Both the position numbers and the translations under genes were made by a program. A stretch of DNA of 64,000 nt from Amphiscolops sp. MND2022 (lineage: Eukaryota): the NCBI GenBank assembly GCA_964187785.1, contig OZ076410.1, forward strand, positions 31,992,001 to 32,056,000. Reading direction: 5' to 3'. The notes below the pieces were generated by a model. The model was given only the letters and a program-made list of their open reading frames with translations, was not told where the DNA came from and did no database searches. Shown piece after piece: positions 1 through 53,195 of this stretch (the first letter of the stretch is position 1; each line of letters opens with the position of its first letter).

Positions 1-46
1 TGTCAAGCCTGAATCTAGTGCGTCAGCAAAACATAGATTTCATCGC

Positions 47-702
47 TTGGTTTTTGACCCGGAACGCCAAAAACTACCAGACTTCTTAGAAGAGTTACAG
101 GAAAGCGCCGAAAAAGCTTTCGGTGACATTGCATCACAAATGATAGAAAGGCTATTATATGCAAAAATGCCACCACACTTGAAACGTTCTATTAATCAAG
201 CCTATCTTGAGAATGGAACATATGAGCAAATAGTCCGACATCTCGAACGAGAGATGGAATTAAACGGACTTGAATCAGAAGACACTGGCGTTAAAACGCA
301 AATGGCAGTAATAAACAAAACAGCAGAAGACAAATCGACGCAGCAGAAAACTGCAACAACAAAAAAGAAGCAACAAACATCAAAAACTGTGCCAACAATA
401 CATTGCAAGATGATCAATGTCGTTATTGTAAAAACACAGGGCACAAGGCAGCAGACTGCGCTAAACTAGCAAAACGTCGTAAGTTGGAAGAAGACCCTGA
501 TGCCATACGCTGTGCGCATTGTAACGCACCAGGACATGAGGAACCAACATGCTACTTCGGAGCAAATATGGAAAATCGCCCCCCGAAGTGGACACTAACC
601 GAAGCACAGAAAAAGCTCATTGAACATTACAAAAACTCCAACAAACATATTAACCCGAAAGCACACCGACAACAACTTTCATCATCGAAGGATTTAAACT
701 AA
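47..702 (+). pseudogene. gag: Gypsy gag, C-terminal part, split by a 1-bp deletion near 393
   Basis: ORF 47-469 (capsid-like YAKMPPHLKRSINQAYLENGTYEQIV) and ORF 403-702 with CX2CX4HX4C knuckles CRYCKNTGHKAADC and CAHCNAPGHEEPTC. Adding one base at CCAACAATA joins them as ...KTVPNNTLQDDQCRYC. Confidence 0.85.
690..702 (+). promoter_or_regulatory. -1 ribosomal frameshift slippery site at the gag/pol junction
   Basis: G GAT TTA AAC TAA: the heptamer T TTA AAC (693-699) lies immediately before the gag stop. The -1 frame is open from 654 straight into pol. Confidence 0.8.
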
Positions 703-3700
703 TAAAGCCACGCCCTACAAAACCAGAGGAAAAAGATGACTGGCAGCATCCAACACCTCACCCAATAAAAACAAACACTTTCACACAACACACTGACTCT
801 CAGACTCCAGGAACTCAACAAAACGAACCAGAAGATGATTTGTATGAAATATACAGAGACGCCCCTGACAGATACATAACCACAAATCTTGAAATAAGTA
901 GCGAAAAAACACCAGAAAATCTGTTTGAATCTGAAAACGAAACCTCACCTCAAAATTTACCAGAACCTCTTCCGAAAAACAATTTTGAACCTCTCCAAAC
1001 ACAAGACTCACCTGTAGTACCAACCGAACCTGCATCAATACAAAAACAACCACTCATAGATGATGAAATTCAAAATCATCTTACAATTAATAAAGACACA
1101 GATATACCAATGCTTCTTTTATCAACCAACCTGACGCTAAAAAGCAAGCGACATGTGTATTATGTTCCAATGGATTTTGAAAAACTTACACTCGACGGTC
1201 TAATTGATACCGGAGCTCTCACGAGCGCAATATCGGAACAAGACCTAAATAAAATCAAACTTCTTGCACCAGAAGCAATAACAGACTCAGGTCCCGCACC
1301 CAATTTTCAAATAATGGTAGCAAACGGACAATTGGAAACACCAATCGGAACAGTCTGCCTAACATTCGAAGTGGCAGATTTTATGTTTAAAGAAAATTTC
1401 ATCGTCATGAAAATTTTACCGAATCCTCTAATCGGACTTTGTTTTTTAAAAAGGAACAATGCCATTTTCGACATCCGACAAGGAATATTGACTTTTCCAC
1501 ATTTATCAATGCAACTGAAACCAGAACACAGTCTTCCAACACGACAATCAACACCACTACTTGCAGAAGCAACATACACACTGCAACCAGGTGAAACAAT
1601 GCTCATCGCAAGCAGAATGCCGCATTTAATTGATCATGACGCAACAGGCATAGTAACGCCATCTATGCACCTTGAGGATCTTGACACACTTTTCCTAGTA
1701 TCTTCCCTCTGCACAGTCAACAATAACGCAGTCGGGTACCAGATCTGTAACTTCTCAGAACTACCATATACGATCACAACAGACACACATCTAGCCGACT
1801 TTCGAGTCTTAACTCCAGAACAATTGAAACACATCAAACCAATTAACCCTTCAATGCTAACATTCATCATGCACCAACATACTGAAGTTACGGACGTATA
1901 CCTTAATGAACTTCTAAAAGTAAACAACAAAGAAGACAAAACGGAACAATACTGGTTTCCAACACCGGAACAACCTGGAGACCCCACAACATACACACCC
2001 ATTCAGAAACGAATATTTGACGAACTAGTGGAACTTCAAACACTAGAAAAACTCAACCCACAAGACGACGAAAAATCACGCAAAACATTTCTTGACAATT
2101 TCGGTTGGAGTGACACAACACTCACACTGTTTGAACGACAGAAGGTAGAAGAACTGCTGGTTGAATTTCATGATATTTTTGCCAGACACCGGTTTGACAT
2201 CGGGACAAATAGAGAATTCAAAGTCAAACTCACACCAAATGATGACCGACCAGCATATAGTCAAAGTCTTCCAACTCCGATCAACCTAAAAGACGACATC
2301 ACGGTAGAACTTGCCCTACTTCACAAATATGGTATAATAACAACTCTACCGTTCTCTAAATACGCAAGTCCAATTTTTGCACAACGAAAACCTAATGGTC
2401 GTTTGCGACTCTTAGTCGATTTGCGCAAGATAAATAATCTCATCTCTGAAGACTACGTAAATAACAATCACCCAGTCAGTACACTATCCGATGCAGCCCA
2501 ACATATGGCCGGAAAGAAATTATTCTGTAAACTTGACTGTTCACAAGCGTACCACTGCCTTCAGATGGCAGATTACCAATCAATTCAGATGTTGGCCTTT
2601 AACTTCGCTAGCCGAACTTTTGCGTATCGACGATTAGCACAGGGCCTTAGTCGATCACTTTCAGCATTCTCTAGTTTCATACGAGAATACTTAGACACCC
2701 TCATCAAAGCAGACCAATGCGCCCAATACGTCGACGACATCGGAATCGCAGCAAACACAGTGTTACAACTGTGTATAAACATCCGAGCAGTCTTCGAATG
2801 TATACGGAACGCAGGACTGAAATTGTCAATGTCAAAGTGCCATTTTGGAGTCAAACAGGTCGATTTCCTGGGAAGAACGATCACACCCGAAGGAGTTTCT
2901 CCCCAAGTAGACAAAGTCAAAGATTTCTTAACGAAACTTAAATTCCCCAAATCCAAAAAAGGCCTTCAAAGGTATATTGGGTTTCTGAATTATTACAGAA
3001 ATTATATACCACGCCTTTCGGAACGACTCACCCCTTTCTTCAAACTACTGAAGGAAACCAACAAATTCTACATTTCTACCGAACTTACAAGCAATTTTGA
3101 ACAACTAAACAACCTTCGCCTTCAATCTTGCCAGATGACGCTCAAACAACCACTTAAAGACAAACAACTAATCGTCATGTCCGATGCCAGTTTCACAGCT
3201 GCAGGATATGCGATTATGATCGAAGACGACCCTCAACAAAAACTACAATCAAAACGCAAAACATACGCACCAATAGCTTTTGGCTCAAAAACTTTCAACC
3301 CAACCCAATTAAAAATGTCAATATATGCGAAGGAGTTTTTAGCCATCTTCTTTGCATTCTCAGAATTTGGGCACCTAATGTGGGGAAGTACCTTTCCTGT
3401 AATTGTCTTTACCGACAACCGTGCAGTTACGAGGTTCTTCCAAACAAAACTCATTCCTCCTGCACTATGGAATGCATGCGACTACGTCCTACAGTACAAT
3501 TTCGTTATAGCACATGTTGCAGGAGCAATGAACACAGCCGCAGATTTTCTGTCGCGAACAGAAATCAACCCGACAGAGAAACTCGAGATGAACATACGCA
3601 ACGACATACAAACAAAAGCCATCGAAGTTAATATTCAATCCTCTGGCATAACAGAAGAAGAACACATCTACCTCCTCCCCGAGGATGAAATTGATGAAAA

Positions 3701-5612
3701 AACACATTGGGAACAAAAAGATAATATTAGAAATCAAGCACAGACCGAAACTCACAATGAACCAGAAAATGAAATAACCGAATTACAAAACTTTCACAAA
3801 CCAACAGCTGGTACGACAAACTACCGCGAAGGACATTTCCGAGACAACGCAAAAATCCGACTCGAACAAAATAATGACCCAGTCCTTCGTAACCTCCGAG
3901 CAAAAATAGAAGGTGAGCCTTTTCATGAATCAGCGTTCACACAAGACAATCGCTATCAACATTACCTACAAAACATACCCCGCAACGAAATCCGCCAGGA
4001 CATTCTTGTACGAAAGTACTACAATGATATCGGACAAATCTCACACTACCAAATACTTCTACCAAAACAGCTTCTGGAAGAATTCCTACAGGCGTTGCAT
4101 GGACACAACGCAAACCACCCAGGAATAACAAAAATGATTCAAGAAGCACGCCAGAAATACTATTACCCATGCTTAGCAAAACACATCAAGAATTGGGTAC
4201 AAAACTACCAAATGTGCATTCAGAACAAAAGAATTAACAACGATTTACTAAAAACAGAACTTCTTAATTGCCCAGAATGGGACCTTGGTCCAGAAGACAT
4301 ACTTCAAATGGACATATTACCGAATCTTCCGCCTACTGGAGGTTTCGATAACATCATAACAGCAATTGATGTCTTTTCAAGATACTTATTTGCTTATCCA
4401 ACAACTCGGATCACAGCCCCTACAGTCGCAAGAGTCATTATGGACATTTTGTGCAAACACACATACTTACCAACAACCATAATAACTGATATGGGCACTC
4501 AATTCAACTCACAAATTACTCGAGAGGTAGCAGCAGTGCTTGGTGTTGAGCTAAAACATGCTTCGACAAAACATGCACAAACAATCGGCATGCTAGAACG
4601 CACTCATGCTACAGTAAAAGCACATTTGAAAGCAGCAACTGGTGAATTCCGTAATAATTGGCACAAATTTCTACCACTTGCTGTCCTAAACCACTACACA
4701 ACGTATCATGCCAGCTTAGGATGCGAACCCACCCGTGTGTTTCACGGCAAAATACCACATAACATACTAGACTACAAGCTAGGCTACAATCCTAATCCGC
4801 GGTATACTCCACAAACTGACATTGCAGAAGAAATACAACGACGAATGGAGATACTCAATGACCAAACCAAAAAGAACATCATGCAGTCATACTTGAAGTA
4901 TAAAGCATACTATGACCGCAAGCCAAAAGCGGCACCGCTTACAACAACAGACTATTGCTACATACTGAACCCAAAAGCAGACACGCAAGCAACGAAAATC
5001 CCATTCAGGGAATTCCGTTGGATCGGTCCCTACAAAGTCGAAAAAGTCCTACCTAACAATAACTACATTGTACGTAGGCTTGGGACAAACAAAACACAAT
5101 TACTACACCGACAACGTTTGAGAAAATTTACACCTAGCGCACCACTAGCAGATAATTTTGTCAAAGAAACAGACTGGCAAAAAGACGACAACATAATAGT
5201 AACACATGATGATTTGTACGCTCACACTTGGGATACAAATTTCGGTACAAACCCATTTGATACTGAACTCCCTGATACTGAACAGGATGACATACAAGAA
5301 TATGTCCCGATAAACCACCCACCCTCCCTCGAAATTTCAAAAAACAGTGGGGGATCCCCGGTAGAACAAACTACCGTTCCTAATGAAGAAACCCTACCCG
5401 AAAATACAGAAAACGAAATTGATGCAAATGATAATCAGCAAGATTTACAACCTAACACTACTATTGATGCAGAAAAATCCCCAGAAAATACAGATGAAAA
5501 TCAAGAAAATGATGAGGTTCAAAAAGAAAAAACCCCTACCAATACACGTGGTGAAAAATATAATTTACGACCTAACCCAAACCCCAATTTCTCAGATTCA
5601 TACAGATACTAA
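693..5612 (+). CDS. pol: Gypsy Pol polyprotein (aspartic protease, dUTPase-like spacer, RT, RNase H, integrase with GPY/F)
   Basis: LIDTGA protease, QYVDDIG RT, VMSDASF RNase H, HGHNANHPG...NYQMC zinc finger (first Cys is Tyr), QMDILP / ITDMGTQF / MLERTH DDE triad, WIGPYKV. The frame is uninterrupted (ORF track 840-5612). Confidence 0.95.
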   Translation, partial: FKLIKPRPTKPEEKDDWQHPTPHPIKTNTFTQHTDSQTPGTQQNEPEDDLYEIYRDAPDRYITTNLEISSEKTPENLFESENETSPQNLPEPLPKNNFEPLQTQDSPVVPTEPASIQKQPLIDDEIQNHLTINKDTDIPMLLLSTNLTLKSKRHVYYVPMDFEKLTLDGLIDTGALTSAISEQDLNKIKLLAPEAITDSGPAPNFQIMVANGQLETPIGTVCLTFEVADFMFKENFIVMKILPNPLIGLCFLKRNNAIFDIRQGILTFPHLSMQLKPEHSLPTRQSTPLLAEATYTLQPGETMLIASRMPHLIDHDATGIVTPSMHLEDLDTLFLVSSLCTVNNNAVGYQICNFSELPYTITTDTHLADFRVLTPEQLKHIKPINPSMLTFIMHQHTEVTDVYLNELLKVNNKEDKTEQYWFPTPEQPGDPTTYTPIQKRIFDELVELQTLEKLNPQDDEKSRKTFLDNFGWSDTTLTLFERQKVEELLVEFHDIFARHRFDIGTNREFKVKLTPNDDRPAYSQSLPTPINLKDDITVELALLHKYGIITTLPFSKYASPIFAQRKPNGRLRLLVDLRKINNLISEDYVNNNHPVSTLSDAAQHMAGKKLFCKLDCSQAYHCLQMADYQSIQMLAFNFASRTFAYRRLAQGLSRSLSAFSSFIREYLDTLIKADQCAQYVDDIGIAANTVLQLCINIRAVFECIRNAGLKLSMSKCHFGVKQVDFLGRTITPEGVSPQVDKVKDFLTKLKFPKSKKGLQRYIGFLNYYRNYIPRLSERLTPFFKLLKETNKFYISTELTSNFEQLNNLRLQSCQMTLKQPLKDKQLIVMSDASFTAAGYAIMIEDDPQQKLQSKRKTYAPIAFGSKTFNPTQLKMSIYAKEFLAIFFAFSEFGHLMWGSTFPVIVFTDNRAVTRFFQTKLIPPALWNACDYVLQYNFVIAHVAGAMNTAADFLSRTEINPTEKLEMNIRNDIQTKAIEVNIQSSGITEEEHIYLLPEDEIDEKTHWEQKDNIRNQAQTETHNEPENEITELQNFHKPTAGTTNYREGHFRDNAKIRLEQNNDPVLRNLRAKIEGEPFHESAFTQDNRYQHYLQNIPRNEIRQDILVRKYYNDIGQISHYQILLPKQLLEEFLQALHGHNANHPGITKMIQEARQKYYYPCLAKHIKNWVQNYQMCIQNKRINNDLLKTELLNCPEWDLGPEDILQMDILPNLPPTGGFDNIITAIDVFSRYLFAYPTTRITAPTVARVIMDILCKHTYLPTTIITDMGTQFNSQITREVAAVLGVELKHASTKHAQTIGMLERTHATVKAHLKAATGEFRNNWHKFLPLAVLNHYTTYHASLGCEPTRVFHGKIPHNILDYKLGYNPNPRYTPQTDIAEEIQRRMEILNDQTKKNIMQSYLKYKAYYDRKPKAAPLTTTDYCYILNPKADTQATKIPFREFRWIGPYKVEKVLPNNNYIVRRLGTNKTQLLHRQRLRKFTPSAPLADNFVKETDWQKDDNIIVTHDDLYAHTWDTNFGTNPFDTELPDTEQDDIQEYVPINHPPSLEISKNSGGSPVEQTTVPNEETLPENTENEIDANDNQQDLQPNTTIDAEKSPENTDENQENDEVQKEKTPTNTRGEKYNLRPNPNPNFSDSYRY

Positions 5613-5847
5613 AAACAGAAGACTACTGAGACTCAACTTTCTCTTACTAACATTCCGATTCAAAATTCAGTAAATAGAAATAAATACGGAAACAAAAGGT
5701 CTGAAGATAGAAGTAATTGACATCAGACATTAGTCTAAAAGAAACAAGTGTAATTGTTCTTAACTGGCGACCCTGACTTAGAAGTCAACTTTTTCTTCTT
5801 TCCGCTGGCATCAGAGGTAGTAGAATCTGGGAACAATGGACAGTCGA

Positions 5848-8800
5848 CTAGTCAACGAACCACAGGGCTGGGCTCTTGGGGCAGATTAATCTTCTCAGGA
5901 GATTTGCTTGGAGTGCCGCACTAGAACCCCGACTCGAATCGGACTTAGCTTTATCCTCAGTGGGCATCCAGGGTTTTCCCTCCTCCGGAGCGCTCTTGCT
6001 ATAATATGCCTCCAACGATGAGCGAATCTCAAGGCGTTTGAAATAGCTGGAAGACAGCAAATGCCAAACTGAGAATTTGCGCTTGAGTAGGAGTCCTGGC
6101 CCATGAGAAAGCAAATCGAAAATACGAGGCAGCGAATTTGGAGACAAGAATAAACTTTCAACCTTCTGAACAGAGGCGATAGTACACTGAAGACTCCTGA
6201 CGGCAGATGAGAATTCATTGGCATCGGATTTGAGTCCGGGCATGGGAACAATAAATAAAGGAGGAGAGATACTAGGGTTTCGCAAGGTTTCACAACAAAT
6301 GCGGAACAGACGAAACAATTCGATACGACTTTGTAGTTCGTAATGGCAAGAGAAGAAGCTCACCCATTCTTTGTTGTTACAAATCTTGTCAGATGGGAAT
6401 TTTGTAATCTGAGAACAATACTCGCTAACAACTACAGGCTTGATGTGAGGCGCGATCCATTTCTGTTGGACGAAATATCCACATAAAAGTTGAATAGAGT
6501 CCACATAATGGACTTCACTACCGCCCAACACCACAGCTTCATCGAATGATGATAATCCTCTGGAAAACGAAGAGGTGGCCAACTCGCTAGTCAGCAGAAT
6601 CTTTAGGAAACAGCGATAGAAGGAGATAACCTGGGCAATGAAACGTCTCGGAGTAGGAATCTTGCTGTCGTTGATGAGATTAGATAAGTCCCGATCCAGC
6701 AAGAACTCATCAACAGTTTTATAAGGCAGGGTTTCGTCGTCCATGTTTAGGGAAAGGTAACTATCCCAATCTGCAACATTCCCGAGGTGAGTGGTTGAGA
6801 AAATTGCTTGCAATTGAGAATACACGAAGACACAGAACTGGTTATACAAGCGGAAGCCCCCAGAGATTGACTCATGTACTTCTTTGAAGGCCGAGTTGTA
6901 TTGGCTGAGGATGTTCCGTGTGATGATCAGGCGAATGACAAAGACACGGTCTTTGATAATCAAGTCATCCATCCCACCTGGCTGAAAGGAAAATACAAAC
7001 GTTCAAACTATGATCAGAAGCCTGAGCCTAGGTGGAGGTTAAAGCTAAAAATACAAACCTCTTGCATATGAAACCGGTAGGCATGTACACGTCTGCTGTC
7101 ACAAAGATGAACAACTACTCGGTCCCAATTCGTGATCACATGATCCAGGATGACGACAGCTTGATTTAGATCATACTCCAGACTAGTGATTGCCTAAAGT
7201 AAGACAATGGCGGTGAAAAACAACCAATTAAGGATTGAGACACAAAGGCACGCGCAAAATATGATGAGTAAACATTATGCAATAATGAACAATCTTTGCA
7301 CGTGCAAAAATGAAGAAACCCAGTACAAATGCGAAACAACAGATATGATGACTCAGAATTCCTAGCGATGATGATTCAGACATAATGATCGAGATAAAAG
7401 TTTTTCTGAGAAGACAATTATGCCGCATCATGCTGCAAACTTCAAGAAGTATGACAAACAATTTACAATGGAAAAGCAAGAAAAAAGTCAAAAAGCATTA
7501 CATTTGCATACAAATTGGCAAAAAGAAACGAAGATGGTCAAAAATACAAAAATCACCAGGTTTAAAAGACTGAGGAAATTTTGGTGGAGAAACATGAAAT
7601 CCCCTGGAATCATTAAATTGGTGGTAGCCCGAGAGACAAATTGAAAAGTTTCATTTAGAAATTTAGAACATACAATAAAATACCAAGTGGAAACAAAAAT
7701 ACAAAGGATAGTAACCTTCTGGAAATCGGGCAAAGCTGTCAACCACGTGCTCCCAATGGCAGAGCGCAATCTCATTATCAGGAAATCCAGAACGCTGCGG
7801 AAATCAAAACGATCAAGAATCTGCACAGAAGGGACCAAGAGGGCACTCTCCAAGTCTTCCGCGTCAAATTTAGGAACTGAGCAGATCCGCTGGTGCTGAG
7901 GAAGGATCCGGGAGAGTGAATATGTAAAGCGTCGAGTGAAGCCTGTCACAAACTGCAGTTGAACATCTTTATCAAGTAGGGCCAAAACCCCACTAATTGG
8001 AGGGATGAAGACTGCGGGACAATTCGTCCGACTTGGGTATACTGCAATGCACATACTGTGTAGTGAGTTGCCCGCCCAGAAGTTCACATAAAGCTTTGTC
8101 TCAGTTGAACATGGCGTAATCCGAAGGGAATAACTCTTGGACGTCTCAATTGAATTAACACAATAGGAGAGCAGTTCACGGAACATGTGTGTCAGCATCC
8201 CCTAAACAGAATAAGCATTATATAATACGAAAGACAATGCAAGAATTGGCTAGTTGATGAAAGAAACTATACCCACCAAGACTCGATGTGGTTGCCAATC
8301 ATACTGTGATATAGGCTCTGTAGTTTTGGTTTCTTGGACCAGATCGTGCCAGAGTGCTATCAAGACATCTAATTTGCCTCCATGGATGAGTCCGGTCTTG
8401 AGGAGAGTGAGCTGTGAGTGCGTCTCTTTGTCTGGTTGTTTTGTGCCCGTCTCCTGTGGGGCTTCTAGTTGTCCAACACGGAGGTAATAATCGCCCAGCT
8501 TGGGTGCTATGGGATACTCTCGCTTTGCCCTCTCCTTTGCATATTTCAGAGCCATACCGGTTAACTCGTTACGATACTTGTCATATAGTGGCAACCCAGG
8601 AGTTTCCATCCTTATTCGGTGCTCTTTCACTAGGTGGGCATCAGTTCGGTAATGGCTCAAAATTTCTAGTGGTCCTTTTGTCATGAGGGAGAGCTCCACA
8701 AGACACACACGACAACGATATTTGTGAGGATACCGTGCGGCATCCGCCGGGGCTGTGACGAAGTACTTGAGGATGGGGTATTTGTGGTACATCCATCCTG

Positions 8801-10075
8801 CTAAAGTGTGTCTCGGTTTAGCACGTTTTCCTACTAGCTCATTCTTCTCTCGTTTTTTCTGCGCCTTGATGGGTTTTTCGTCAATGATAGCAGACCCGTC
8901 AGAAGATGAGTATTCCAAATCAGAATCGTTTGATGAATCTGTAGAACTGGGACTACGTTTTCTTTTCTGCTTTATCCGAGTCTTTTCTGACCCCTGCGGC
9001 CCATTGTATGACATTGTTGGTTCAAGCCTGGAAACAGGGTTTATCTTTTCGGGTGGCGTTCGCACCGCCTCCACACTGGTTGCAGCCTTCTTGGAGAGTA
9101 ACGTCGTTTGTTTCAAAACCTTTTTAGGCATTGTGCTAGCTACCGGAGTTGGGTGGTCACCAGATCCTGATAGAATGCTCTTGGCTCGGATCCGAGCACT
9201 GGCCTCCTCAGCTGCTTCTGATAAAAGTCGCTCTAATCTATTTTCCCCAGTATCCTTAGGACTTTCTTGGTTAGGTGGGAGCAAAGGAAATGGACTGACT
9301 TTGTCTTTGTCCTTGTTTTGAGGTTTATCTTTGTCGAGATTTGCCGTAGAAATGAAGCGTGTGAAAGGTGACCCTTTGTTGGCAACAGTCCCCTTCGTAG
9401 GAGTGTCTCTAGGTTTAACTTCACCTTTCTCGCTTGGGGAAGCAACGGGTGCTGATCCTGAAGAACATGGCAAAACTCCGCTCACAGGTGCGTTAACCAA
9501 AGGGGCAATCTCTTGTTGGACGCAGTCTTTAACGGGATCGCATGATTGCTGATTTGGCTGGTTGACTTCCTCTACAATTTCGACAAGTTCGGAGAAATTA
9601 TCTTCGATTAGAACTTGAGGAGTCAAATTAGGAGGGACGTGAAATTCAGCTAACGTTGATCTTTGAGAATGATCTGGCAACGAGACTGATTGCTGAATCA
9701 CAGGCCCTTTGCTGGTCCTCGTGAATCTTCGAATACTGACTTGCGGTTGAGATGGGGAAGAATCTGAAACAAATTGAACTTGAGCTGAAATCAGCAAACA
9801 GGAAGTTGATATTTCCGCCAAAAATTTGAAAACCGGAAGTTGACAAATCAGAAGATAGTCGACATAAATGCAAGTCTGGCCAACTCGCATTAAAAAATCC
9901 GTGATATCACAAAGAAAACAAAATACAGTCTGATTTTAATCAGAAGAACAATCAAAAATTCAAGCTTACCGCATGGTTCTGCAGTAGAAGATGAGCGAAG
10001 ACTCATCATCGACCTCGTCCTTTTCTTCGGGGGAGTTGTTTTCCGCCGGGAATTGGAAGATCGTGGTGCCACCAT
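5848..10075 (-). CDS. Predicted 5-exon antisense cargo gene, about 1120 aa; C2H2/BED-like zinc finger plus hAT-transposase-like body
   Basis: Exons 10075-9970, 9784-8277, 8201-7716, 7193-7059 and 6981-5848 are joined by GT-AG introns of 185, 75, 522 and 77 bp, all in compatible phase. The zinc finger is YRCRVC...LSHYRTDAH. Confidence 0.7.
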
Positions 10076-11160
10076 TTCCACTTGACCAGGTGAATTATGA
10101 ATTAACCGTGGATAATAAATACAAATCGAAACGCAAATAGATAGAAATTAGTTTGAAAATAATCTATGGACTACAAATTCGAAAAGTAAAGCTGAGAAGA
10201 AGTGGATGATTAGAAAATTGGGAGAAAAGTACGACAAAAATTGACTCACAAACAGATTTCACTCAGACTACAAAAACAAACAATGTTGCGGCGTGGCTTA
10301 CAGCTGAACAAATTCTGAGCATGACAGATTAACATATTTGCGCAAATGCCGCGCACTGATTGGATGAGCTTGTCACGGACCAATCGACTCTGCCAGAAAG
10401 ATTGGCGGCGTGAGCGGCAGTACTGAAACGAATTACGCATACATGATGCTCCGCCCCCTAGTGGCAGATTAGTGTCATTTGCGGAAATGGACAGCATCAA
10501 GCAATACAGAATTAACTGAGATTGACCTAAAACAAATCAACACCACATGACTACATGTTTTATTTTATTGATAACTGACCATCATGCATCAAATATCTGA
10601 CATATGTATGCTGAAATAGACGTCATGAAGCAGTGTGTACATGATTTAAAGGAGTGAATTAAATTACTTTAACTCTGAAACTTGACATGTATTTTGATTG
10701 AAAGTCATGTAATTTGGTTTTATTTTTACTTTTGTTGGTGATATGATTTAAAACGCATGCTATATTTCCATAAAAGGAAATCTTGTAAATTCCGGAAAAT
10801 AAAAATCAAGTTCCCAAAATTCACCATGTAAAACCTCATTCATATTTGTTTACAGTCGATTATTATGCTTTTGCCATCTCGAATGGAAATTTAACACCCT
10901 TATCCGCCATGTATGGTAGTTGTAAAGAAGACATCATTTTGTTGTGAAGCTATTTAAATAAGATTGAGATATCATCTAATGCTTACCCCAAAATTGCCGG
11001 GAAAAGGGTTAACAAGAAGAGAGATGACTCTACAAACTACATACCTTATTTGGAAAACCCGGGAGAATAGTCAAATTGTGAAGAAAAACGGAAAGGATTC
11101 ATTCAGTCAAAACTTTCTGAGGAAAGCAGTTGAAACCTTAAAATCCAAACGAAAAGCAAA

Positions 11161-12297
11161 ATGTCAAGAAGCTCAAATCTCTTCACCATCGATGAGGATA
11201 TGCAATCCATCTCCACAAATTCCCCTGGATTAATTAACATATCCAGTGACTCTGGGTAAGAATTTGTAACCGAGCAGTCATACGTCGACCCAATTGACTT
11301 GAGATTCAGAGCTGGAGGACCACTACAGGATCCAATGTTGGCTTTTGTCAACGAGGATGCGGCTAGGCTGTTCGCGGTTAGTGAAACAGCGTCGAGAGAA
11401 GATTCTTTCATCGACGTTACCGGAACTGACATTGAAAGAGAAATACTGAGCACAATAACTGAAAACACTGAACTACCAGACTTTTCGCTTTCATCATTTG
11501 TCGAATCAGACGAGAGCAATGAAGACAATTTACTGTTAAACGCGGACTTTGCAAACGTACCAAGAAATAGTTATGGTAGGCCAGTAGTCACTGTTCCCCC
11601 GATGCGCGCTGGAGAAGTAATAACACAGATGCCTCCACTATCACAAAAAATGCCAACAACCCCTTGAGTGATCTCCATAGAAATGGTCCGATAAGACCAG
11701 TGCCAATAACTCCAATGGTGATACCCCAAGAAATTCCGACCGCTAATCAACCGCATCAAAATAACCGTACTAGAGGGATTCTACAAACGCCCTTAAGGGA
11801 CCAAAACTTTAACCCAAATACTCAACAGCACATGTCTACCTTGACTAGCCGTGGAGCGATCCCTTTCCAACATGCTGGAATAACCAACATACAACATCCC
11901 GGTAACCTAGATAACTCTGGATATTATTACAACTCCGCCGGGCAACTATATTTACCCTCAAGGTGTACACAACAACCCCGGGGAAGCCGAGACTCACCCT
12001 ACCCAAGCATACAGCAGTACGCAGGAACAGCCGATCCACAGAAGGATGCAGCTTAACCCGCCTGTAATGCCTCACGTTCAGGGAAACTGTCACTGGTGTG
12101 GAAAAACCTATGACGAAGTAGCCCTTGACGCCTTAGCAGCTTACACGATTGCCACCGAATACCCAGGTGAAACAGTGCGAGACCGGAACATCAGGTCACG
12201 AGCCTATCTAGATGGGTTCGAGGCTGCACTCATTTGCTTCAAAAATGCTGGCCTGTCACAGCCTAGAGCTTGTGCTGGACCCGCGGAGCAGCGATAG
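11161..12297 (+). pseudogene. Decayed sense cargo ORF (about 375 codons), acidic/Ser-Pro-Gln-rich with a C-terminal CHWC motif
   Basis: ATG at 11161 (MSRSSNLFTIDED), in-frame TAA at 11257, same frame continues to 11667. One-base shifts then link ORFs 11664-12056 and 12046-12297. Confidence 0.55.
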
Positions 12298-12944
12298 AGG
12301 CAAATGACTCGACCATCTAGCATCTTCTTAAATTAAAGCAAACTCTTTCATTCTTTAAACTTGTACTACGTGGATTTGTATGTAACTTTTACTTAACAGC
12401 CTTGTGTAAATTTGTTCATTATTTTAATCAATTGCAGCTGTGGAATAACATTTGTTTAACAATCGGCTTACTAAACATTGCAAGGTGTTAATAAAATTGA
12501 AGTGTGTGATTGACTAGTGTGATTTATGATGAAATGCATAAATTATGCGCGAATTGCGTAGTGCAGTGATATGTAAGGACTAATGTTTGAGCCAGTCTAC
12601 CACACCAAGCTTGAAGTATACTGCAGCATAATTACACTTTTCCAACTTGCTAACTACATCATTTTGGAGTATGACTCATTGGATTGAATGAACCACACGT
12701 GCAGTACTACGTCGGGATTAACATTAGCGTTAAATATGAGTCATACTACATGATGCCGTGACTTTTCATTAACGATGGAACGGAATAATGCAGTTAACAT
12801 ATTAACCAATCAAAATGCAGAAAGCATACGTCATGTAAGAATCTATTTATAACCATGATGCAAGAACCTATTTTTACATTGAACTGAACCCTATTTTTAG
12901 ATATTGCGTAAATATGATGTCAGCGTGACATTCAAAAAATGGGG

Positions 12945-13378
12945 TGTAATGTTACTAAAAATAGTTTGAAAAAGGGAGAGTAAGAACTCATAAAATTAAC
13001 TCAGTCAAGAAAAAACATTCATACTGATCAGACCTCCTTTTTCACCCTTCAACTTCTATTCTAATTTCAATGATTTATTTCTGTACACGAATTTACCAAC
13101 TCCACTTTGTCTTACTGAATCCAACAAACTAATTAAAATTCTTCTCTCCAAAACATCGTTTTCACCTAACTATGATGGGAAACAGAAAGAATAGGAGATC
13201 TAGACGGATTCAATCACCTTCGCTTGAGAGAGAACTGAGTGCATCAGAAATAGAGACATCACAAGGCCATCTAATTTAAACGAACTAAGAACGCCGATGC
13301 AACCTTTGAGCATACAAAACATCGATTTAAATGACTCTGTGGTCATAAATGAGAATCGCACACAAGAGGATTATCACA
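12945..13378 (+). repeat. 3' LTR (434 bp) of the large Gypsy element
   Basis: TGT...ACA termini, preceded by a polypurine tract. It ends exactly where similarity to the duplicated segment at 17057 begins. Confidence 0.75.
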
Positions 13379-13820
13379 CGTGCGAATGACTATTGAAACT
13401 GCGGACAGCGCAAATCATCAATAGTAAACATTCAGAAAGGAGCCGTTTGCAAGATAGCTGTGCAAGAAACGCGACGCTCAAAATAATCAAGTCCTAATGA
13501 AACACAAAAAGCAAAATAGAAATAGATTTTTGAAGCAATTTTTTTTGGTAATCAAAATATAGATGAAACTTCCAGGGTATAGTCCATTTTTACTTCGTTT
13601 GAAGAGTGTTCTTCTACTTCTTCAGACAAATGTTACACACCTGCAACTGAAGTCAAGCTGCTTAAAGTCAAAACAATTCCCTTTATTCAATGACATTTTG
13701 CCAATTACCAGTCCGACTCAGGTATACAGAACGTCTGAGATGCAGTATCATGAAGAAATATAAGTATCCCCCGCAAGAATTATTGTTTAGTCACGTTTTC
13801 AAGGATCTGAGTGTAGATCC

Positions 13821-14032
13821 TGTTGTAATCTCTTTGCTTGACAAGAATTACACAACATAAAACTGTATTTGTCTATCTATCTTTTTGTACTGAACAAAGA
13901 TAAGTTTATTGAGTATAGACAATAGTAGCAGGTACTAAGGACGTGTAGACTATTAAGTATAATAACATCAAACAATGATAAATGTCTGTCTATGATTTGT
14001 CCTCTAATTCTAGCTCTTTAGCTACTACTTCA
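13821..14032 (-). repeat. Solo LTR (212 bp) with 5-bp TSD GATCC
   Basis: Same sequence as the LTRs at 17499-17710 and 19409-19620. GATCC lies at 13816-13820 and 14033-14037. Confidence 0.95.
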
Positions 14033-14179
14033 GATCCTAAACTGGTTTACTGTTTCAAACAGTATTTATATTCGGTCCTGGACTTCATGCTTGATGGCCT
14101 CAAATTCAATATCAAAAAATATCAACAGGCCGGTAAAAACATTAAACTAATAGCAAAACGAATATGGAACTATTCGCGA

Positions 14180-14485
14180 ATCCAAAACAGTTAGTGAGGA
14201 AATCCAGCTTGATTCATTGGCCCTTTGGCAGGAGACCCTGAGAACATTACTTATTGCTCGTAGCTATCGAAAATTTCTCTGAAAATCTAACATTAAAACT
14301 TGTAACATGCACTGGACCGAGAGGTGTAGAAAAGTGTTTGCGAAAGTACATCCGTGACAACAGAATCTCGCCAATAATAGGAGCAGACCAAGCGTCGGCA
14401 TTCATGTGAAAGGAGATAAAAAGGAGATGATTTCGTAATACGGCAAATTGTTTGCTCGATGTACGATCATCAAGGAAGCAGGATA
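14180..14485 (+). pseudogene. Old degenerate Gypsy integrase fragment (second copy about 19770-20073)
   Basis: Frameshifted translation EIQLDS.GPLAGDPENITYLLVAIENFS...GADQASAFM resembles the rve core (compare IALDFADPF...YLLVSIDHFS at 37405-37785). Confidence 0.55.
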
Positions 14486-15241
14486 TTGGACAAACTGCGA
14501 GCACTAATAGCAGGATAGTATACACGAATTACGGAGACGTTTATGTTTCAGTTTAACGAGGAACGAGGGAAGGTAGTTGGTGTAGAATAAATTGTACACA
14601 AGAACCGCTGGTCGCAAGGTTCAAAATGTTTCCGGAATTATCCTCACGACAAAAATGCTCAGAAAGCCATGAATCAAAAGCGCAGTTTGGAAAACGACAT
14701 TCCGAAAAAGCAGATGTCACAGCGAATACAGTTTCAAAATTCAGTCGGAAACGATTTGGCAATCATTTTTAATTAGGTACAGTAAAAAAAGTACAGTAAA
14801 AAAGAGAGACATCAAAGACGACGTTCTGTACAACCTAAGTTCATCGCAGTAGAAAGAGAAAAGTATAGAACCGGTACGCTAGATCAATGAGCGAAAACAT
14901 CAAAAAAGAAAATTTCCAGATGCCGAATTTGGACAACATAATGCGCAAGTGAGCCAAAACAGTCACCATCGAAAGATTCGAAAGCATATGGATCACATCT
15001 GTTGGTTTAAAACACGTGTTTGGGCAAGATATTTCAAACCTTAAGTGTGCAATATATTGTAACTTCACGAAAATTATAGGACAGTTTCAAGAAAAGTATA
15101 GGACAGTTTCAGAAAAGTGCACAGAAGAAAATCTCAACTACAGCAGGATAAGTACAAAATAGCGAGAAACGAAATCAAGTGGCGCGGATCGAGTTATCAG
15201 GAAAAGATGTGAACAGCACAACGATAAAATACAGCCCGAGT

Positions 15242-16375
15242 TGACAAACCAGGGAAATCCATCGGTGGCCACCGAGCTTCCACCACAGTTCCATCGGTGG
15301 CCACTTCGGTGTCCGTAACAGTTTTTGCGGTGGCCACCGATGAGCTATAGGTGGGGACCGGTGGGCCACCGATGGACCGGTGGGCTACGTTGTGCCGTCG
15401 ATGAAAGGTCCACAAAAGTTGGTTACCCTAGTTGAAACTGCGGAAAAATTTCACAAGCACAGGTATACATGCATTGATCATCTTCGAAAACTTTTGGAAG
15501 TCGTAACGAGCAAGATCATTAGTAAATTCCTACAGAACGAAGATCTAAAACTTATGAAAAACACCAGAAGAAGATCTGAAGTCACCGAAAAACCACCGGA
15601 ATAAGATCTAAAATGACTGGAAAAAACACCGGCAGAAGATCTAAAATCCCGGAAAAGAACACAGGAAGAAGATCTTAAATTACCAAAAAACACCGGAATA
15701 AGATCCAAAATCACCGAAAAAACATCGGAATAAAATCTAAAATGACTGGAAAAAAGACCGACAGAAGATCTAAAAGCCCGGAAAAAAACACCGGAATAAG
15801 ATCTAAAGTCACCGAAAAACCACCGGAATAAGATCTAAAATGACTGGAAAAACACAAGAAAAAATCTAAAATCACTGGAAAAAAACACCGGAATAAGATC
15901 TAAAATTATCGAAAACCAGTGGAGTAAGATCGAAGAACCACTGAAATAATATCTAAAATCACCCAAAAACACCGGATTAAGATCTAAAATGACTGGAAAA
16001 ACACCAGAAAAAGATCTAAAATCACCCAAAAAAATCACTAGAGTAAGATCTAAACTCACTAGATAACCAGTGGAAAAGGTTTTTTGGACACGATTTGAAG
16101 CTGCAAACAGGGTTTACAGATACTTCAGAACCTGTCCTTATAATTTTCCCATTTTGTTAGGCTTTGATGCATTAAGGTTGCGAATATCGTCTCATGGTAT
16201 TTCGTGTACCAACATTCAGTTGCTAGAAACGTTGAACGAAATTTTCACTTTCGAAATTTTCGAATTTTCCACCGATGGACCATCGGTGGGAAAGCCTCCA
16301 CGTAAGCTAATTTCCCCCCACTGATGGGCATTGGTAGTCCACCGATGGCCACCCATGGATTTCCCTGGGTTGTCA
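15242..16375. mobile_element. Non-autonomous TIR/foldback element with an internal minisatellite
   Basis: About 30-bp TIR TGACAA(A/C)CCAGGGAAATCCAT(C/G)GGTGGCC and many subterminal CCATCGGTGG/CCACCGATGG motifs. TSD not resolved. Confidence 0.7.
15539..16060 (+). repeat. Degenerate minisatellite of about 31 bp, about 17 units
   Basis: Recurrent AAGATCTAAAAT(G/C)AC(T/C)GGAAAAAACACCGGAAT, with an AGATCT core in most units. Confidence 0.9.
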
Positions 16376-18039
16376 GTACGGGAGGGCATATCAGAAAAGA
16401 TGACAAAAAACTTGAAGGACTTGAGATCCTACTTAGGGGCAGGTAACCAACTAGTTACAGCTAGTTGAAATGTAATCAATAATTAGCAACATGAGCTGAA
16501 CCATTTAGAGGAAAGAAAAAAGAAACTGGGAATGGAAGCATGACGTGACTTTTGACCGGGTAAAAAATATACAGAAACCTAATAAACTTTAACGACACTA
16601 GCTACGAAGAATTGAGCGCACTATCGATACGCTACAAAAAACGGGTTTCAAGATCGAGAGCTACTTTCATGTGCGTCGCGATAGTTGCTCGACCACGAAT
16701 CTGAGTGTTCAACAACTCAACTGCAACCACTTTCCAAAGTTTGGACAGTCGAGCACTTTAGAAGCTACATAAACGGAGTGACGTTTGGAGTGGTCTCTGC
16801 CTACCAAGTACCAAAAACAGCGGTGAAAAGTATCCACGGGACTCGGGAACCAAACCTACTCGAGTCTTCTCACTAGCAAGATCGTCAGAAGTTCACCGTT
16901 TGACATTGATGTTGTTCACCAACATGGGCGAGCAATGGAAAATAGCGACTTTTCATCGAAGCGCTCTAGTGTAAATCACGAAAAAGAGTAGGCTATTACC
17001 CAGTCAGAGACTAAACAAATAGTCAATCAACCAATAAAAAACCAGCAAACTGAGAACGTGCGAATGACTATTGAAACTGCGGACAGCGCAAATCATCAAA
17101 CGTAAACATTCAGAAAGGAGCCGTTTGCAAGATAGCTGTGCAAGAAACGCGACGCTCAAAATAATCAAGTCCTAATGAAACACAAAAAGCAAAATAGAAA
17201 TAGATTTTTGAAGCAATTTTTTTTGGTAATCAAAATATAGATGAAACTTCCAGGGTATAGTCCATTTTTACTTCGGTTGAAGAGTGTTCTTCTACTTCTT
17301 CAGACAAATGTTACACACCTGCAACTGAAGTCAAGCTGTTTGAAGTCAAAACAATTCCCTTTATTCAATGACATTTTGCCAATTACCAGTCCGACTCAGG
17401 TATGCAGAACGTCTGAGATGCAGTATCATGAAGAAATATAATTATCCCCCGCAAGAATTATTGTTTAGTCACGTTTTCAAGGATCTGAGTGTAGATCCTG
17501 TTGTAATCTCTTTGCTTGACAAGAATTACACATCATAAAACTGTATTTGTCTATCTATCTTTTTGTACTGAACAATGATCAGTTTATTGAGTATAGACAA
17601 TAGTAGCAGGTACTAAGGACGTCTAGACAATTATGTATAATAACATCAAACAATGATAAATGTCTGTCTATGATTTGTCCTCTAATTCTAGCTCTTTAGC
17701 TACTACTTCACTCCCCCCTCCGCGATTGGATGATAGTTGACCAATGAGGGAGACTTGTTCTTTATGGCGGTTTTCCGTCCATAGCGTTTTTGGTATGTTC
17801 GCGGTGGTCCGCGTTTCATCAGCTGTCCGGTTGAAATGTTCTGCCTGGACTGGTCCTTCCGTTGTGTCGTTTAGTACTCGACGCTGCTGGTCTTTTCCCG
17901 AGTATCTTCCTCGATTTCTGGTGTCTTCTGGGCGTTTAGTCTGTTTACGGTGTTTCCTGTAATCAGATGTTATGTGATTATTGAATCTAATAATGGGGTT
18001 TGTTTTTGTTTGTCTTTTCGATCTACGCAAGTTGTGTTC

Positions 18040-18590
18040 TTTTATTGCGGTTAATTTGTCTTGTAACGGTCTAATACCGTTTTGGTCAATTCTGTGGCCG
18101 ATCCACTCTATATCGGTTTTGAAAAGCTCGGATTTGTTCTCGCTTAATCTGTAACCCGCGTTTTCTAGTCTTGTTAACACATCGGGTAATTCCTCCATGT
18201 GTTTCTGTTTTGAGCCTTTAGTTACTACTATGATGTCATCCAGCCATGCTGGATGTTTATTTTCCAGTGTTTGGTCAATTTTCTCTTGAAAAATGGTCGG
18301 TATGTCCGCTAACCCGTAAAATCCTTTTAAAAAGCGGTAGTAGCCGGTAAAATTACCTCCGGTCACCGCGAATATACAAAGGTCCATTGCTCGTTTTGAT
18401 AATTGTAATTAACCGTACGCATAGTCTAGATCGAACTTTGAGATCCAGATTTCATCTGCCGGTCCGTCGGCTATTTTTGTGGAGATTCTTGAAATCAATT
18501 CCTCCATATTTGGCAATTGTGTTTTCCTTTTTACCGTTATCTCGTTTAGTTTCCGAGAGTCCAGGGCTATTTTTACCGATTTGTTCTTTG
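18040..18590 (-). pseudogene. pol: Gypsy RT fragment with a WLDD active-site motif
   Basis: KIALDSRKLNEITVKRKTQLPNMEEL, SKFDLDYAYG, YGLADIPTIFQEKID, HPAWLDDIIV (18235-18246), EWIGHRID. Confidence 0.85.
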
Positions 18591-19351
18591 GTGGGTTTGA
18601 ATTTTCTCTTTTCTACGTGTCTGATTTTCTTTTCTTCGTCGGTTTCTGGAGAATCGTTCAGTTTTTCATACATAAACTCGTGTATGGCGTCTGTTATTGC
18701 TTCAACTGACATGTCGCCTTTGCGTATCTTCTTTTTCAGCTCATAGTCTCCAGTTGACGTCCCTATGAGTGATAAGAATTTAGATGCAAGTAATTCTGCG
18801 GCTCTGATGTTTTCGAATTCAGAGTTCTTTTCGATTTCCAGAATTCTTTTCCATACATCTGTTGCCGTTTCTCCGTTTTCTCTCTTCAGGTCGAAGAAAT
18901 CGGATCGGCTGTGTTGTACGTTCCGTTCCGGTGTGTAATGTAACCGGAATAGGGCGCATAGTTTGTGTAGTGGAAGGGAGCTCGGTTCTCTTTCTCTTAC
19001 CGTCTTGGTCATTTCGGTAAGGGCGTTTTGTCAGATTGCCCAAAGGAAGATGTCTTTTAGCTCGGTTTCTAATTGTTCCCGATATTGTGGTAAGAACTCT
19101 TTGGAATTTACCATCGGTGAGATGTCAATCTCTTTCGTCATTTTCACGTATTGGACGAATTTTCGCCACCACAGGTTTGCACTTGTGCTATCATATTTTT
19201 CCAGACTTGGTATGGATAGCTTTTGGGTACAAGTCCGTTCGCCCGTTCTCATTGAAGTTTCATTGAGCGGTGGCCGGGTACTTGAAGATTGGTCCAGTGA
19301 CCGGTTGGGTTGTTCACCATTCGTGGGTGGTGTGATGTGAGATTCGTCCAT
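18590..19351 (-). pseudogene. gag: Gypsy gag with a premature TGA at 19031
   Basis: MDESHITPP...WWRKFVQYVKMTKEIDI...FLWAI*QNALTEMTKTVRE...RNVQHSRSDFFDLKR. ORFs 19031-19432 and 18452-19012 are in the same frame. Confidence 0.75.
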
Positions 19352-20599
19352 TTTCGATAATCGTTTGTAATAGTTCTTGGCTAAGTGTAAGTTAGCCTGA
19401 CTGCGCCATGTTGTAATCTCTTTGCTTGACAAGAATTACACAACATAAAACTGTATTTGTCTATCTATCTTTTTGTACTGAACAAACATCAGTTTATTGA
19501 GTATAGACAATAGTAGCAGGTACTAATGACGTGTAGACAATTAAGTATAATAACATCAAACAATGATAAATGTCTGTCTATGATTTGTCCTCTAATTCTA
19601 GCTCTTTAGCTACTACTTCAGATCCTAAACTGGTTTACTGTTTCAAACAGTATTTATATTCGGTCCGGGACTTCATGCTTGATGGCCGCAAATTCATTAT
19701 CAAAAAATATCAACAGGCCGGTAAAAACATTAAACTAATAGCAAAACGAATATGGAACTATTCGCGAATCCAAAACAGTTAGTGAGGAAATCCAGCTTGA
19801 TTCATGGGCCCTTTGGCAGGAGACCCTGAGAACATTACTTTTAGCTCGTAGCTATTGAAAATTTCTCTGAAAATCTAACATTAAAACTTGTAACATGCAC
19901 TGGACCGAGAGGTGTAGAAAAGTGTTTGCGAAAGTACGTCAGTGACAACAGAATCTCGCCAATAATAGGAGCAGACCAAGCGTCGGCATTCATGTGAAAG
20001 GAGACAAAAAGGAGATGATTTCGTAATACGGCAAATTGTCTGCTCGATATACGATCATCAAGGAAGCAGGATAATGAAGAGGTTATCAAGACCTGTCAAC
20101 GAAAGGCTCAGAGCGAATTGAAATACTAGTCGTGAAAAAAACTACTTGTTTTGTGAGCTAAGTAGAGCGCTAAGTATCAGAAAGGGTGAAGATCGGACAT
20201 CACTGTTTGAGAAACATACGTGTAAGAGACCATTATGACGATAGCACGGTTTTTGTCAGCGACAGACAGAGAAAAATGAACTTGACTGGCATATTCTAGA
20301 AACAAAAAGAAAATCACTGGAGAAACTAGTGGCACCGACAGATTCGTTTCTGCAGCCAAGACCAGTGAGGTGACCATGTCCAAACAAAAAATCAGAGAGA
20401 GCAGCAAAAGCCAAAACGAGCCAAGCCGTATGTCATGAAGGAAATGAAACCGAACAGAAGGATAAGATATTCGCGGAACTGCAAAACTTGCTAGTTAAAC
20501 TTTTTCAAACTCAGTTGTATCTTTTTCATTTATTTATCAATTGCTAAACCTGTAATTTGTGTTCTTCCATATATTGCTGTTCGTATAAAAAATACTCAA

Positions 20600-35875: not shown

Positions 35876-37870
35876 TGTAGTATGATATACCGATGTAGAG
35901 GATTAAAAATGTATTATACAGTATGATGAATTGAAGTGTTTTTCAGAACGTGTATCTTTTCTCAAGGCTCTGTGGCAACTGGCGGTAGCATAATAACCTT
36001 AAGCTAGATTTTTGACAGGTAGTGTTGATACATATTTACAACTGACAACTTTAACACTTTCATGACTTCAATAACATCTACCACATTCCCCGTTTTGGGA
36101 GAATTTGGACATCAATTAATCCTAACTTTATACAACAGGTACTTCACTAATAAAATTAACAAACAGAGTTAATACTGGTAATACAGGTAAACGGAAATGG
36201 TAAGGGTTTAATGTTTCAGTGTAATGTTTTAATTGCTTAATGTTTCAGTCTAATTTTCTGACTCCGTGTCCAGTTGAATCAGATCAATCCAATATCGTTT
36301 TGTGGGCATTTGGACTCTCTCTGATGTTCTCTTGATGGGTTTTTTCAGATTTTCATCTATTTTCCATTTCCTTGTAGCCTTTATGGAGCAAGTCGCTTTC
36401 TCGGGGTTCTGCGCATTCCCCGTCTGTTTGTCAGGGGCACCTCTCTGCTCCTCCCCCTTCTTTCCGCTGATTTCCTCTTCTGTGTTGCTTGCTGTTATGT
36501 ATACTACGGGGGGACGCGCCTCTTCCTCGCTGTTCATCTCGAATGCTACTGTCGCAAACTGCAGGGCAGTTTTCTTGTGGCTCGTTCTACGCTCTTTCTT
36601 GCACCCAGTGCTGTCCGAATCTGATGTGGTCTCGATTTTGCTCTTTTTTTCTTTTTGCTTGGCTCGGTACTGATGTTGTAGAAACTTTGCTTTTGCGCTT
36701 TTGTTGCGATGGCCACATATCGCTTCGCATACAGTTTCAGTTTGCTGGATCCCTCAGGCAGCATGGTGATTGTGTGTGCTGATTCTTTAATTTTTCTTTC
36801 GGCCTTTTTGTGAAAGGCTCCTCGCAGTTTTGTTCCTCTAGCCCTTTCTCTGACCAGGACTGTGGAATCTAACTCGTCTTGGAAGTCCGAATTGTCATAT
36901 TGAAGGTCCGCGTCCTTTTCTGAAATATCCAGCAGTTCTGAGACTAAGTTGGTTTTCACCGTGTAAGGTTCCCTTCCTCATTGCTTTTTCAAAGGGCGAA
37001 CTACCGTCGTTCTTTTTGCTTATGCGTAGGGCATTCAAAGTTTCCGACAGTCCTGATTGGTCCTTTGTTACTATTATTCGTTTATTCGTTCGCAAGCGTT
37101 CCTTGATCGTTCTTGAGAGTCGTTCGATTTTGCCATTTCCCTCATGATTGGTCCTGATTGGTCCTTTGTTACTATTATTCGTTTATTCGTTCGCAAGCGT
37201 TCCTTGATCGTTCTTGAGAGTCGTTCGATTTTGCCATTTCCCTCATGATTGGTCCTGATTGGTCCTTTGTTACTATTATTCGTTTATTCGTTCGCAAGCG
37301 TTCCTTGATCGTTCTTATGTGTCGTTCGATGTTGCCATTTCCCTCATTTCCATCACCGGGCAAGTTTTATGTTCTTTTCTAAATTGTCTACAAAACCGGG
37401 CGACTTATTCACTTACAAACACTGTGCCGGGGTCTGTTCTTTTTTTTGGGACTCCAAATTGACCAATGTATTGTTTCAAAACTTCAATTACTTTTTTCGT
37501 AGTCGGGCAACGTAAGAATTTTGCGTGCGGCCATCCCGAAAAATGATCGATTGATACTAGTAAGTATTTATTTCCTTCCTTCGCCTTTTGAAAGGGGTCG
37601 GCAAAATCTAATGCTATTTCCTCATTTTGCTCTTTTGTTTTAGAGATGTTTCCCGTTTCTTTTTGGCTTGGGATACATTTTAATTTCTCACTTGATTGTA
37701 AGCATTTCTCACAAAGGCGCGCTTGATCGATCACCTCTCGGTGAATTCGGGGCCACCAAATGTCACTCACTATCGATATCATCACATCGCGACCGTTTTA
37801 TTGTAATTTTTTACATTTGCGATAACACGTTGTATCGTTTTGTCGGAGAAGTAGTTTGCCGGTAACAATC
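35876..37870 (-). mobile_element. 5'-truncated Gypsy element: integrase remnant, PPT and 3' LTR (35876-36085)
   Basis: IWWPRIHREV...CEKC, IALDFADPF...YLLVSIDHFSGWP, TDPGTVF, GNG.IER. On the minus strand PPT AAAACGGGGAA precedes TGTGGTA...TACTACA (210 bp). Confidence 0.8.
37051..37346. repeat. 101-bp tandem triplication inside the integrase remnant
   Basis: TCCTGATTGG starts at 37051, 37152 and 37253. Confidence 0.95.
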
Positions 37871-52857: not shown

Positions 52858-52903
52858 TGTTGCAGAGCAAATATGGTTGAATTAAAACAAACAAAAATCA
52901 AGT

Positions 52904-52974
52904 GACCATAGCACGGTCGGTAGAGTATGGGGCTCGGAATTTGAAGGTTACCGGTTCGATTCCCGAAACCGTCA
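52904..52974 (+). promoter_or_regulatory. tRNA-derived Pol III promoter (A and B boxes) in the BEL LTR; second copy 61678-61748
   Basis: A-box-like TAGCACGGTCGG, B box GGTTCGATTCC (52953-52963) at tRNA-like spacing, TTTTT at 53008-53012. The stems pair poorly. Confidence 0.7.
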
Positions 52975-53195
52975 AATATTTGCTACTTCTGAAAATAGTA
53001 AAATATATTTTTCAAATATCATTCAAATAATTTGCTATCTCGAAACTTTAATTTGTTTAATTATATTTGTAAACAATATTGATCTTTTGCAAGTTGTTTC
53101 GATTTATTCACTGATGTCTTTGAATGTTTAAAATATTGCTAACAAAAAACTCTTTGCAAACGGACTGTATTCACCCGAAGGCTTACAGTTTAACA

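Follow-up and report, generated by a model that had tools for sequence, protein, structure and literature searches.

The window analysed here, a stretch of 64,000 nucleotides from Amphiscolops sp. MND2022 (contig OZ076410.1, forward-strand positions 31,992,001 to 32,056,000), carries a Ty3/Gypsy-type long terminal repeat (LTR) retrotransposon with a conserved head-to-head gene pair between pol and the LTR. One member of the pair, antisense to gag and pol and interrupted by four introns, is likely to be a captured hAT-type DNA transposase, predicted from a structural model to be catalytically dead; the other is a single-exon sense gene. Both accessory genes evolve under purifying selection. The features, in window positions, are the following:

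2-702, plus strand: 3′ portion of gag, encoding two CCHC knuckles (zf-CCHC, E 0.0013); frame shifted in this copy; overlaps pol, which is in another frame
654-5612, plus strand: pol, protease-reverse transcriptase (RT)-RNase H-integrase; 1,652 codons, open
5848-6981, minus strand: antisense exon 5, aa 739-1115, predicted all-helical
7059-7193, minus strand: antisense exon 4, 45 aa
7716-8201, minus strand: antisense exon 3, 162 aa, predicted RNase H-like core
8277-9763, minus strand: antisense exon 2, a variable Ser/Pro/Lys-rich part, then a BED-like zinc finger and helices
9764-9969, minus strand: antisense intron 1, unusually conserved across types, with several CCGGAAG/CAGGAAG-type motifs
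9970-10075, minus strand: antisense exon 1, with the start codon; basic
10290-10420, no strand: conserved block between the two starts, with motifs that we take to be CCAAT boxes and a GC-box-like motif
11161-12297, plus strand: sense accessory gene, one exon, 379 aa in sister copies, ending 44 bases inside the LTR
12241-12253, plus strand: tract at the position of the polypurine tract (PPT), AAAAATGCTGGCC, pyrimidines included; encodes the conserved FKNAGLS of the sense protein
12254-13378, plus strand: 3′ LTR, TG...CA, 1,125 bp, lacking ~360 bp present in sisters
12934-12947, plus strand: motif internal to the unique 3′ region (U3) of one LTR type, at first described as a PPT followed by TG; not a boundary
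13379-13383, plus strand: target-site duplication CGTGC; a second CGTGC precedes the 5′ LTR

The element is of Ty3/Gypsy type by the order protease-RT-RNase H-integrase behind gag, by its paired TG...CA LTRs with a short target duplication, and by a tRNA primer-binding site (PBS) downstream of the 5′ LTR. In a PDB search, RT gave a best E of 8e-30 (7kse), and 1e-20 for the Ty3 polyprotein. Gag is a single frame of 444-447 codons in 16 of the 35 copies having both genes; its terminal GGATTTAAACTAA (window 685-702), within the pol overlap, is a possible −1 frameshift (slippery) site. The third sense open reading frame (ORF) of env-bearing Gypsy elements, with signal peptide and transmembrane anchor, was absent by hydropathy and Pfam, and Pfam scans gave no match to TRP28 (PF04195), found in the antisense ORF of Retand/Tat elements.

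A preliminary description of this DNA had put a PPT at 12934 and the start of the LTR at 12945, making the pol-to-LTR interval 7.3 kb. Self-comparison moves this boundary: the repeat common to both LTRs is 12254-13378, and it differs from the 5′ LTR (G000:C2:31990473-31991597) at 7 positions (99.4% match). The interval is thus 6,641 bp, the sense gene overlapping the LTR by 44 bases. The purine tract 12934-12944 lies within U3, at a depth of ~680 bp. Of 17 close copies (this copy and 16 sisters chosen by LTR match), 15 have it in both LTRs; the motif was not found in most other LTR types. When 12930-13400 was searched against the own genome (1.07 Gb), one copy was found 13.8 kb upstream, together with many paired copies elsewhere, and none of the 40 candidates scored, out of 474, showed an LTR beginning at the proposed site. 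This is a warning for LTR annotation, as a purine tract followed by TG may mislead.

Apart from these LTR and PPT coordinates, the earlier picture is supported: a large Gypsy-type element lacks env and bears an accessory module of two genes. No LTR follows the end of pol at 5612, the antisense stop (5848, minus strand) lies tail-to-tail with pol across 235 bp, and the two ATGs stand head-to-head at 10075 (minus) and 11161 (plus). The best 19-residue Kyte-Doolittle means, 1.38 for the antisense protein and 0.73 for a sister's sense protein, agree with the lack of an env-like transmembrane segment. The length, predicted to exceed 13.4 kb, is 14,906 bp in this copy, which is large, but a review reserves the word giant, as first applied here, for >20 kb (PMC6431247). 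The earlier description had overlooked the four antisense introns and the disruption of both gag and the sense frame in this copy.

The upstream 5′ LTR and target duplication expected from that picture were both found, and an exact 5-bp duplication accompanies 15 of the 17 close copies, whose target sites have no 5-mer in common. A single CGTGC at window 17057-17061 is an empty duplicate of the target site; the element sits inside a local duplicated unit of ~3.7 kb (window 13378-20076 and the upstream flank). The 17 close copies measure 14.3-19.8 kb, mostly 15.6-15.8 kb, and sister LTRs 1,486 bp, the ~360 bp deficit of this copy being present in both of its LTRs. LTR pairs of close copies are ~97.5-99.8% identical, so these insertions are recent; across the family, LTR types are ~70% alike. 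The stretch before the 3′ LTR is A-rich, conserved and correctly placed, though not pure purine, and its priming role is putative. The sense polyadenylation signal AATAAA is not retained across all types, and no antisense polyadenylation signal was found downstream of pol.

The PBS, TGGTGACAGGAG, follows the 5′ LTR in 17 of 17 close copies. The genome contains 32 instances of a tRNA-like 3′ end complementary to it (control, 0), and a complete tRNA gene was not found at the 3 such loci scanned. These tRNA-like 3′ fragments (L060-L062 and 29 other places) have a genomic CCA end, and are possibly primer copies left behind by reverse transcription. Some copies of the element carry nested insertions. 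Three copies have internal tandem duplications (G000:C12:54212600-54233550, C13:45947800-45967100 and C1:47813300-47832300), the kinds seen being 4.5 kb over the antisense gene, 2.1 kb in the promoter region, and an additional, third LTR accompanied by a portion of the sense gene.

The antisense gene model (minus strand, 10075-9970, 9763-8277, 8201-7716, 7193-7059 and 6981-5848) yields a protein of 1,115 aa, with four introns and no internal stop in the window copy. In alignments of 11 to 19 diverged copies, exons were conserved and introns drifted, with GT/AG borders. Across 37 copies, 257 of 265 scored sites of introns 2-5 were canonical, sites with a poorly aligned flank being left out of the score; intron 1 was judged visually in 11 copies. 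Exon 3 measures 486 nt in 29 of 36 copies, and 35 of 36 have an exon 4 of 135 nt. Intron 3 contains a short near-palindromic block (window 7400-7430, TGCAGCATGATGCGGCATAATTG on the minus strand), conserved in most types although the intron drifts. In most other types a further intron at ~6900 splits exon 5. It is precisely absent from the window copy, where the frame of the last exon 5 residues differs from that of sisters. This fifth intron is present in the most distant aligned copy and exactly absent in 10 of the 37 copies, all of the window lineage. The simplest explanation for so precise a loss is recombination with a copy made from a spliced antisense RNA. An apparent second loss in a distant family was rejected, as the intron was present, in frame and stop-free. 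Introns persist because, being antisense, they escape splicing of the sense genomic RNA, and this orientation lets them survive its reverse transcription.

Compared with a moderately diverged copy, the ratio of non-synonymous to synonymous rates (dN/dS) of the antisense gene was 0.10-0.26 per exon, two 13-codon rows from one frameshifted copy being set aside. Between types, the proportion of synonymous differences (pS) was 0.66-0.95, saturated or nearly so, and that of non-synonymous differences (pN) 0.11-0.29.

The origin of the antisense protein was sought by structure prediction, folding the natural frame of a distant-family copy, including 24 intron-coded residues. The predicted model has the RNase H-like core that is the catalytic fold of hAT transposases. 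A structure comparison gave ties that leave room for an origin other than hAT; in a wide structure search Hermes ranked first, and it alone aligned finger through core in one piece (comparison structures: Hermes, PDB 8edg, 2bw3 and 4d1q). The BED-like finger (C-x2-C-x16-H-x5-H, at aa 386, in exon 2) has a conserved C2H2 pattern, is spanned by the Hermes alignment, and gives a weak profile match. The DDE catalytic triad could not be recognised: at the positions of two catalytic aspartates, after strand 1 and strand 4, no conserved acid was present in 15 sequences. The C-terminal region (exon 5), the place to look for the helical insertion and dimerisation region of hAT, was modelled as all-helical with low confidence (predicted local distance difference test score, pLDDT, 45) and resembled only generic helical bundles; no Foldseek match was found for this model, nor a PF05699 match in exon 5. 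ESM Atlas gave no usable match for finger plus core; its leads for exon 5, all to helical bundles, were weak (top 0.90, recognition 1317) and were rejected as uninformative.

Sequence searches gave little. Pfam scans found no family at cut-off for either accessory protein, and PF14291 matched nowhere. Homologue searches returned only ENA proteins without names (43, 52 and 2 matches, the last with 8,000 candidates scored), and no antisense homologue was seen beyond ENA contigs resembling the same family. Host hAT frames, recruited with PF05699, gave no convincing profile match to the antisense protein. A PPR repeat match (PDB sequence profile, E 1e-4 from three weak pieces) was judged to be chance. 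Elsewhere in the genome, host transposase-like frames with a similar zinc finger and without Pfam match were noted (L158:1030-2325, minus strand, and relatives; 60 genome matches).

Counted from its first Met, the sense ORF is 375-383 aa long in 15 of 37 copies; in this copy a stop near 11257 interrupts it, as do small deletions near 11648 and 11953. Its pN/pS is 0.17-0.19 for close pairs and 0.32-0.56 for far pairs. Homologues down to 31% identity retain an N-terminal hydrophobic-acidic motif (19 of 21 homologues), a low-complexity middle and a conserved C-terminal CxxC domain of ~75 aa. The acidic motif resembles a SUMO (small ubiquitin-like modifier) interaction motif; the protein found no match in Pfam, PDB or named proteins. 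Between the two starts, conservation across types extends to the 10290-10420 block and to antisense intron 1, suggesting an internal, possibly bidirectional promoter. The block is likely this promoter, and intron 1 may have a regulatory role.

The gene pair belongs to the whole family. Exon 5 matched at least 111 places in the genome and exon 3 at least 151, with 34-100% identity. Antisense and sense regions are present in all 16 sisters picked by LTR (two with internal deletions in the antisense gene); of twenty additional copies spanning the identity range, those listed have the identical gene order; and 10 of 10 distant relatives, with antisense exons 36-55% identical, share the layout. Of the latter, 9 had an LTR pair in the fetched stretch, and in one the sense gene matched only at its end.

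Copies are mosaics. Among 34 copies, antisense exon 6 falls into nine types 19-41% apart, for a median RT distance of 5% (maximum 14%), and 41 of 87 pairs with RT <3% apart have antisense exons >25% apart. In four pairs pS in pol was 0.20-0.26. Identity switches abruptly, directly past the pol stop and near 10276. A pairing of antisense types with LTR types was rejected, since the two assort independently. Recombination exchanges antisense cassette, LTR and gag-pol backbone independently. A caveat on these counts is that antisense divergence guided the choice of 20 of the 37 copies; the 17 LTR-picked copies alone contain four antisense types.

A dead transposase with a retained finger is most simply a DNA-binding protein. 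The reading that we favour, and to which we give about even chances, is that the captured hAT-type transposase acts in the nucleus, where it binds DNA and regulates the chromatin of its own element so that expression is maintained. The internal promoter would drive both mRNAs, separate from the genomic RNA. The antisense protein, predicted to keep finger, core and long helical part, would bind short motifs in the non-coding 3′ region of the element, and the sense protein, apparently largely disordered, may with its SUMO-interaction-like acidic motif be its chromatin-facing partner. A CCGCATA/CATCATA-like 7-mer group reaches up to 34 occurrences, against 5 in shuffles, in the last 4.2 kb of distant relatives, a motif selected from the very data used for enrichment. 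It is weaker in the close family (4-11 against 3-4), and pol is not enriched. As to terminal inverted repeats such as a hAT element would have, repeats of at least 40 bp, the only length sought, were absent from 5613-12944. Plant antisense accessory proteins were nuclear wherever tested (PMC7264820), and VANC proteins are described as element-encoded sequence-specific anti-silencing factors with short repeated targets (PMC5735166).

Other readings account for part of these observations. The same predicted fold would suit a transposase-derived integration helper which binds element ends or target chromatin and steers or chaperones integrase, and hAT proteins bind DNA ends and oligomerise. However, the free movement of the cassette among backbones and LTR types fits poorly with tight contacts to integrase or ends, and target sites share no 5-mer. 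We consider this role unlikely, although comparable ones were proposed for plant antisense ORFs (PMC7264820). Equally unlikely in our estimate is that the pair serves self/non-self recognition or copy control (as immunity, exclusion or subfamily competition), with frequency-dependent selection maintaining the deep antisense types in the manner of incompatibility alleles. Such a system would account for deep types on nearly identical RTs, and for a synonymous difference so much higher in the cassette than in pol. Yet a recent recombinational sweep of one gag-pol backbone through old lineages suffices without any specificity, the divergence-based choice of 20 copies may inflate the contrast, and sense gene variation is not in step with that of the antisense gene.

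The antisense gene may also be a genuine accessory gene of another origin, such as a MULE/IS256-type transposase, a duplicated integrase or an RNase H-like host gene. The ties among fold matches, the silence of host hAT frames, with nothing matching beyond the finger, and the restriction of homologues to same-family contigs are all compatible with this. Against it stand the one-piece Hermes alignment and the finger-helix-core-helical order, which we take to be that of hAT; such an origin seems to us improbable, if a shade less so than the two roles above. Finally, nested insertions in some copies, and a sense gene in the position of env, might suggest a one-off nested DNA transposon, a neutral passenger or a cryptic envelope gene. 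The layout is identical in every sister and distant relative examined, selection is purifying, splice sites are retained, and neither protein has a signal-like or transmembrane segment. Family-wide conservation thus refutes one-off cargo, unless the proteins are membrane-bound, and we give this last reading hardly any credence.

Antisense genes in a long pol-to-LTR region are known from plant Retand, Grande and RIRE2, bean PvRetro13-type and fungal Boty elements, and the Retand region, of 2.9-6.6 kb, is likewise long (PMC11963269, PMC7264820 and PMC4093653). As in those elements, the antisense gene is family-wide, probably has its own promoter, and a nuclear DNA-binding regulatory role is proposed. 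Their antisense proteins, mostly without similarity to proteins of other elements (PMC7264820), carry TRP28 or SMC-like domains, none of which matched here. Unlike the plant and fungal genes, the present one is interrupted by four to five spliceosomal introns, is predicted to encode a transposase fold and occurs as swappable deep alleles, and its head-to-head sense partner extends into U3. With Hermes it would share the order BED-like finger, RNase H-like core, helical region, but it lacks the conserved catalytic aspartates, is extended at the N terminus by 350 variable aa, and resides within an LTR element, apparently with no inverted repeats of its own around it. The plant mobile domain, common to Gypsy and MULE elements according to PMC5418596, and VANC offer parallels of transposon-borne accessory proteins linked to silencing and of domain traffic between class I and class II; neither of them derives from a transposase within an LTR element, and Pfam scans showed no sequence match to either.

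Viral parallels exist as well. The retroviral sense gene nef overlaps PPT and U3, and the sense gene here similarly codes through the PPT position into U3. HTLV-1 HBZ is a spliced antisense regulator (PMC11963269), as the antisense gene here may be. Unlike in those viruses, env is absent, the sequences are unrelated, and the antisense promoter is probably internal rather than in the 3′ LTR. Planarian Burro is also a large invertebrate Gypsy-like element with extra coding capacity, but it exceeds 30 kb, has env-like sequence and extra domains in its sense polyprotein, and no antisense gene is reported in the accessible text (PMC6431247). In the open literature (Repbase, subscription papers and supplements being outside the scope) we found no description of an LTR-element antisense gene that is rich in introns, derives from a transposase, faces a head-to-head partner and has swappable alleles.

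Beyond the element, the window contains tandem arrays at 15557-16060 (32-33 bp units), 37050-37352 (101 bp) and 48501-48838 (17 bp). At 52857-61930, an identical direct repeat of at least 300 nt, with copies 8,774 bp apart, flanks a GC-richer stretch and may mark a second young LTR element.

Knowledge of antisense accessory genes in LTR retrotransposons comes chiefly from plants and fungi, and their origin and function have been called unknown (PMC7264820). For the present family a class II transposase is a candidate origin; its antisense gene, rich in introns, passes through an RNA life cycle, and alleles swapped in nature make function testable. A wider proposal, which we hold only tentatively, is that a retrotransposon clade domesticated a DNA transposase as a multi-exon DNA-binding factor for anti-silencing or self-recognition, with a SUMO-facing partner and one bidirectional promoter, its many ancient alleles being traded among near-identical backbones like immunity cassettes. 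If this is true, transposase domestication, usually credited to hosts, would also be performed by other mobile elements.
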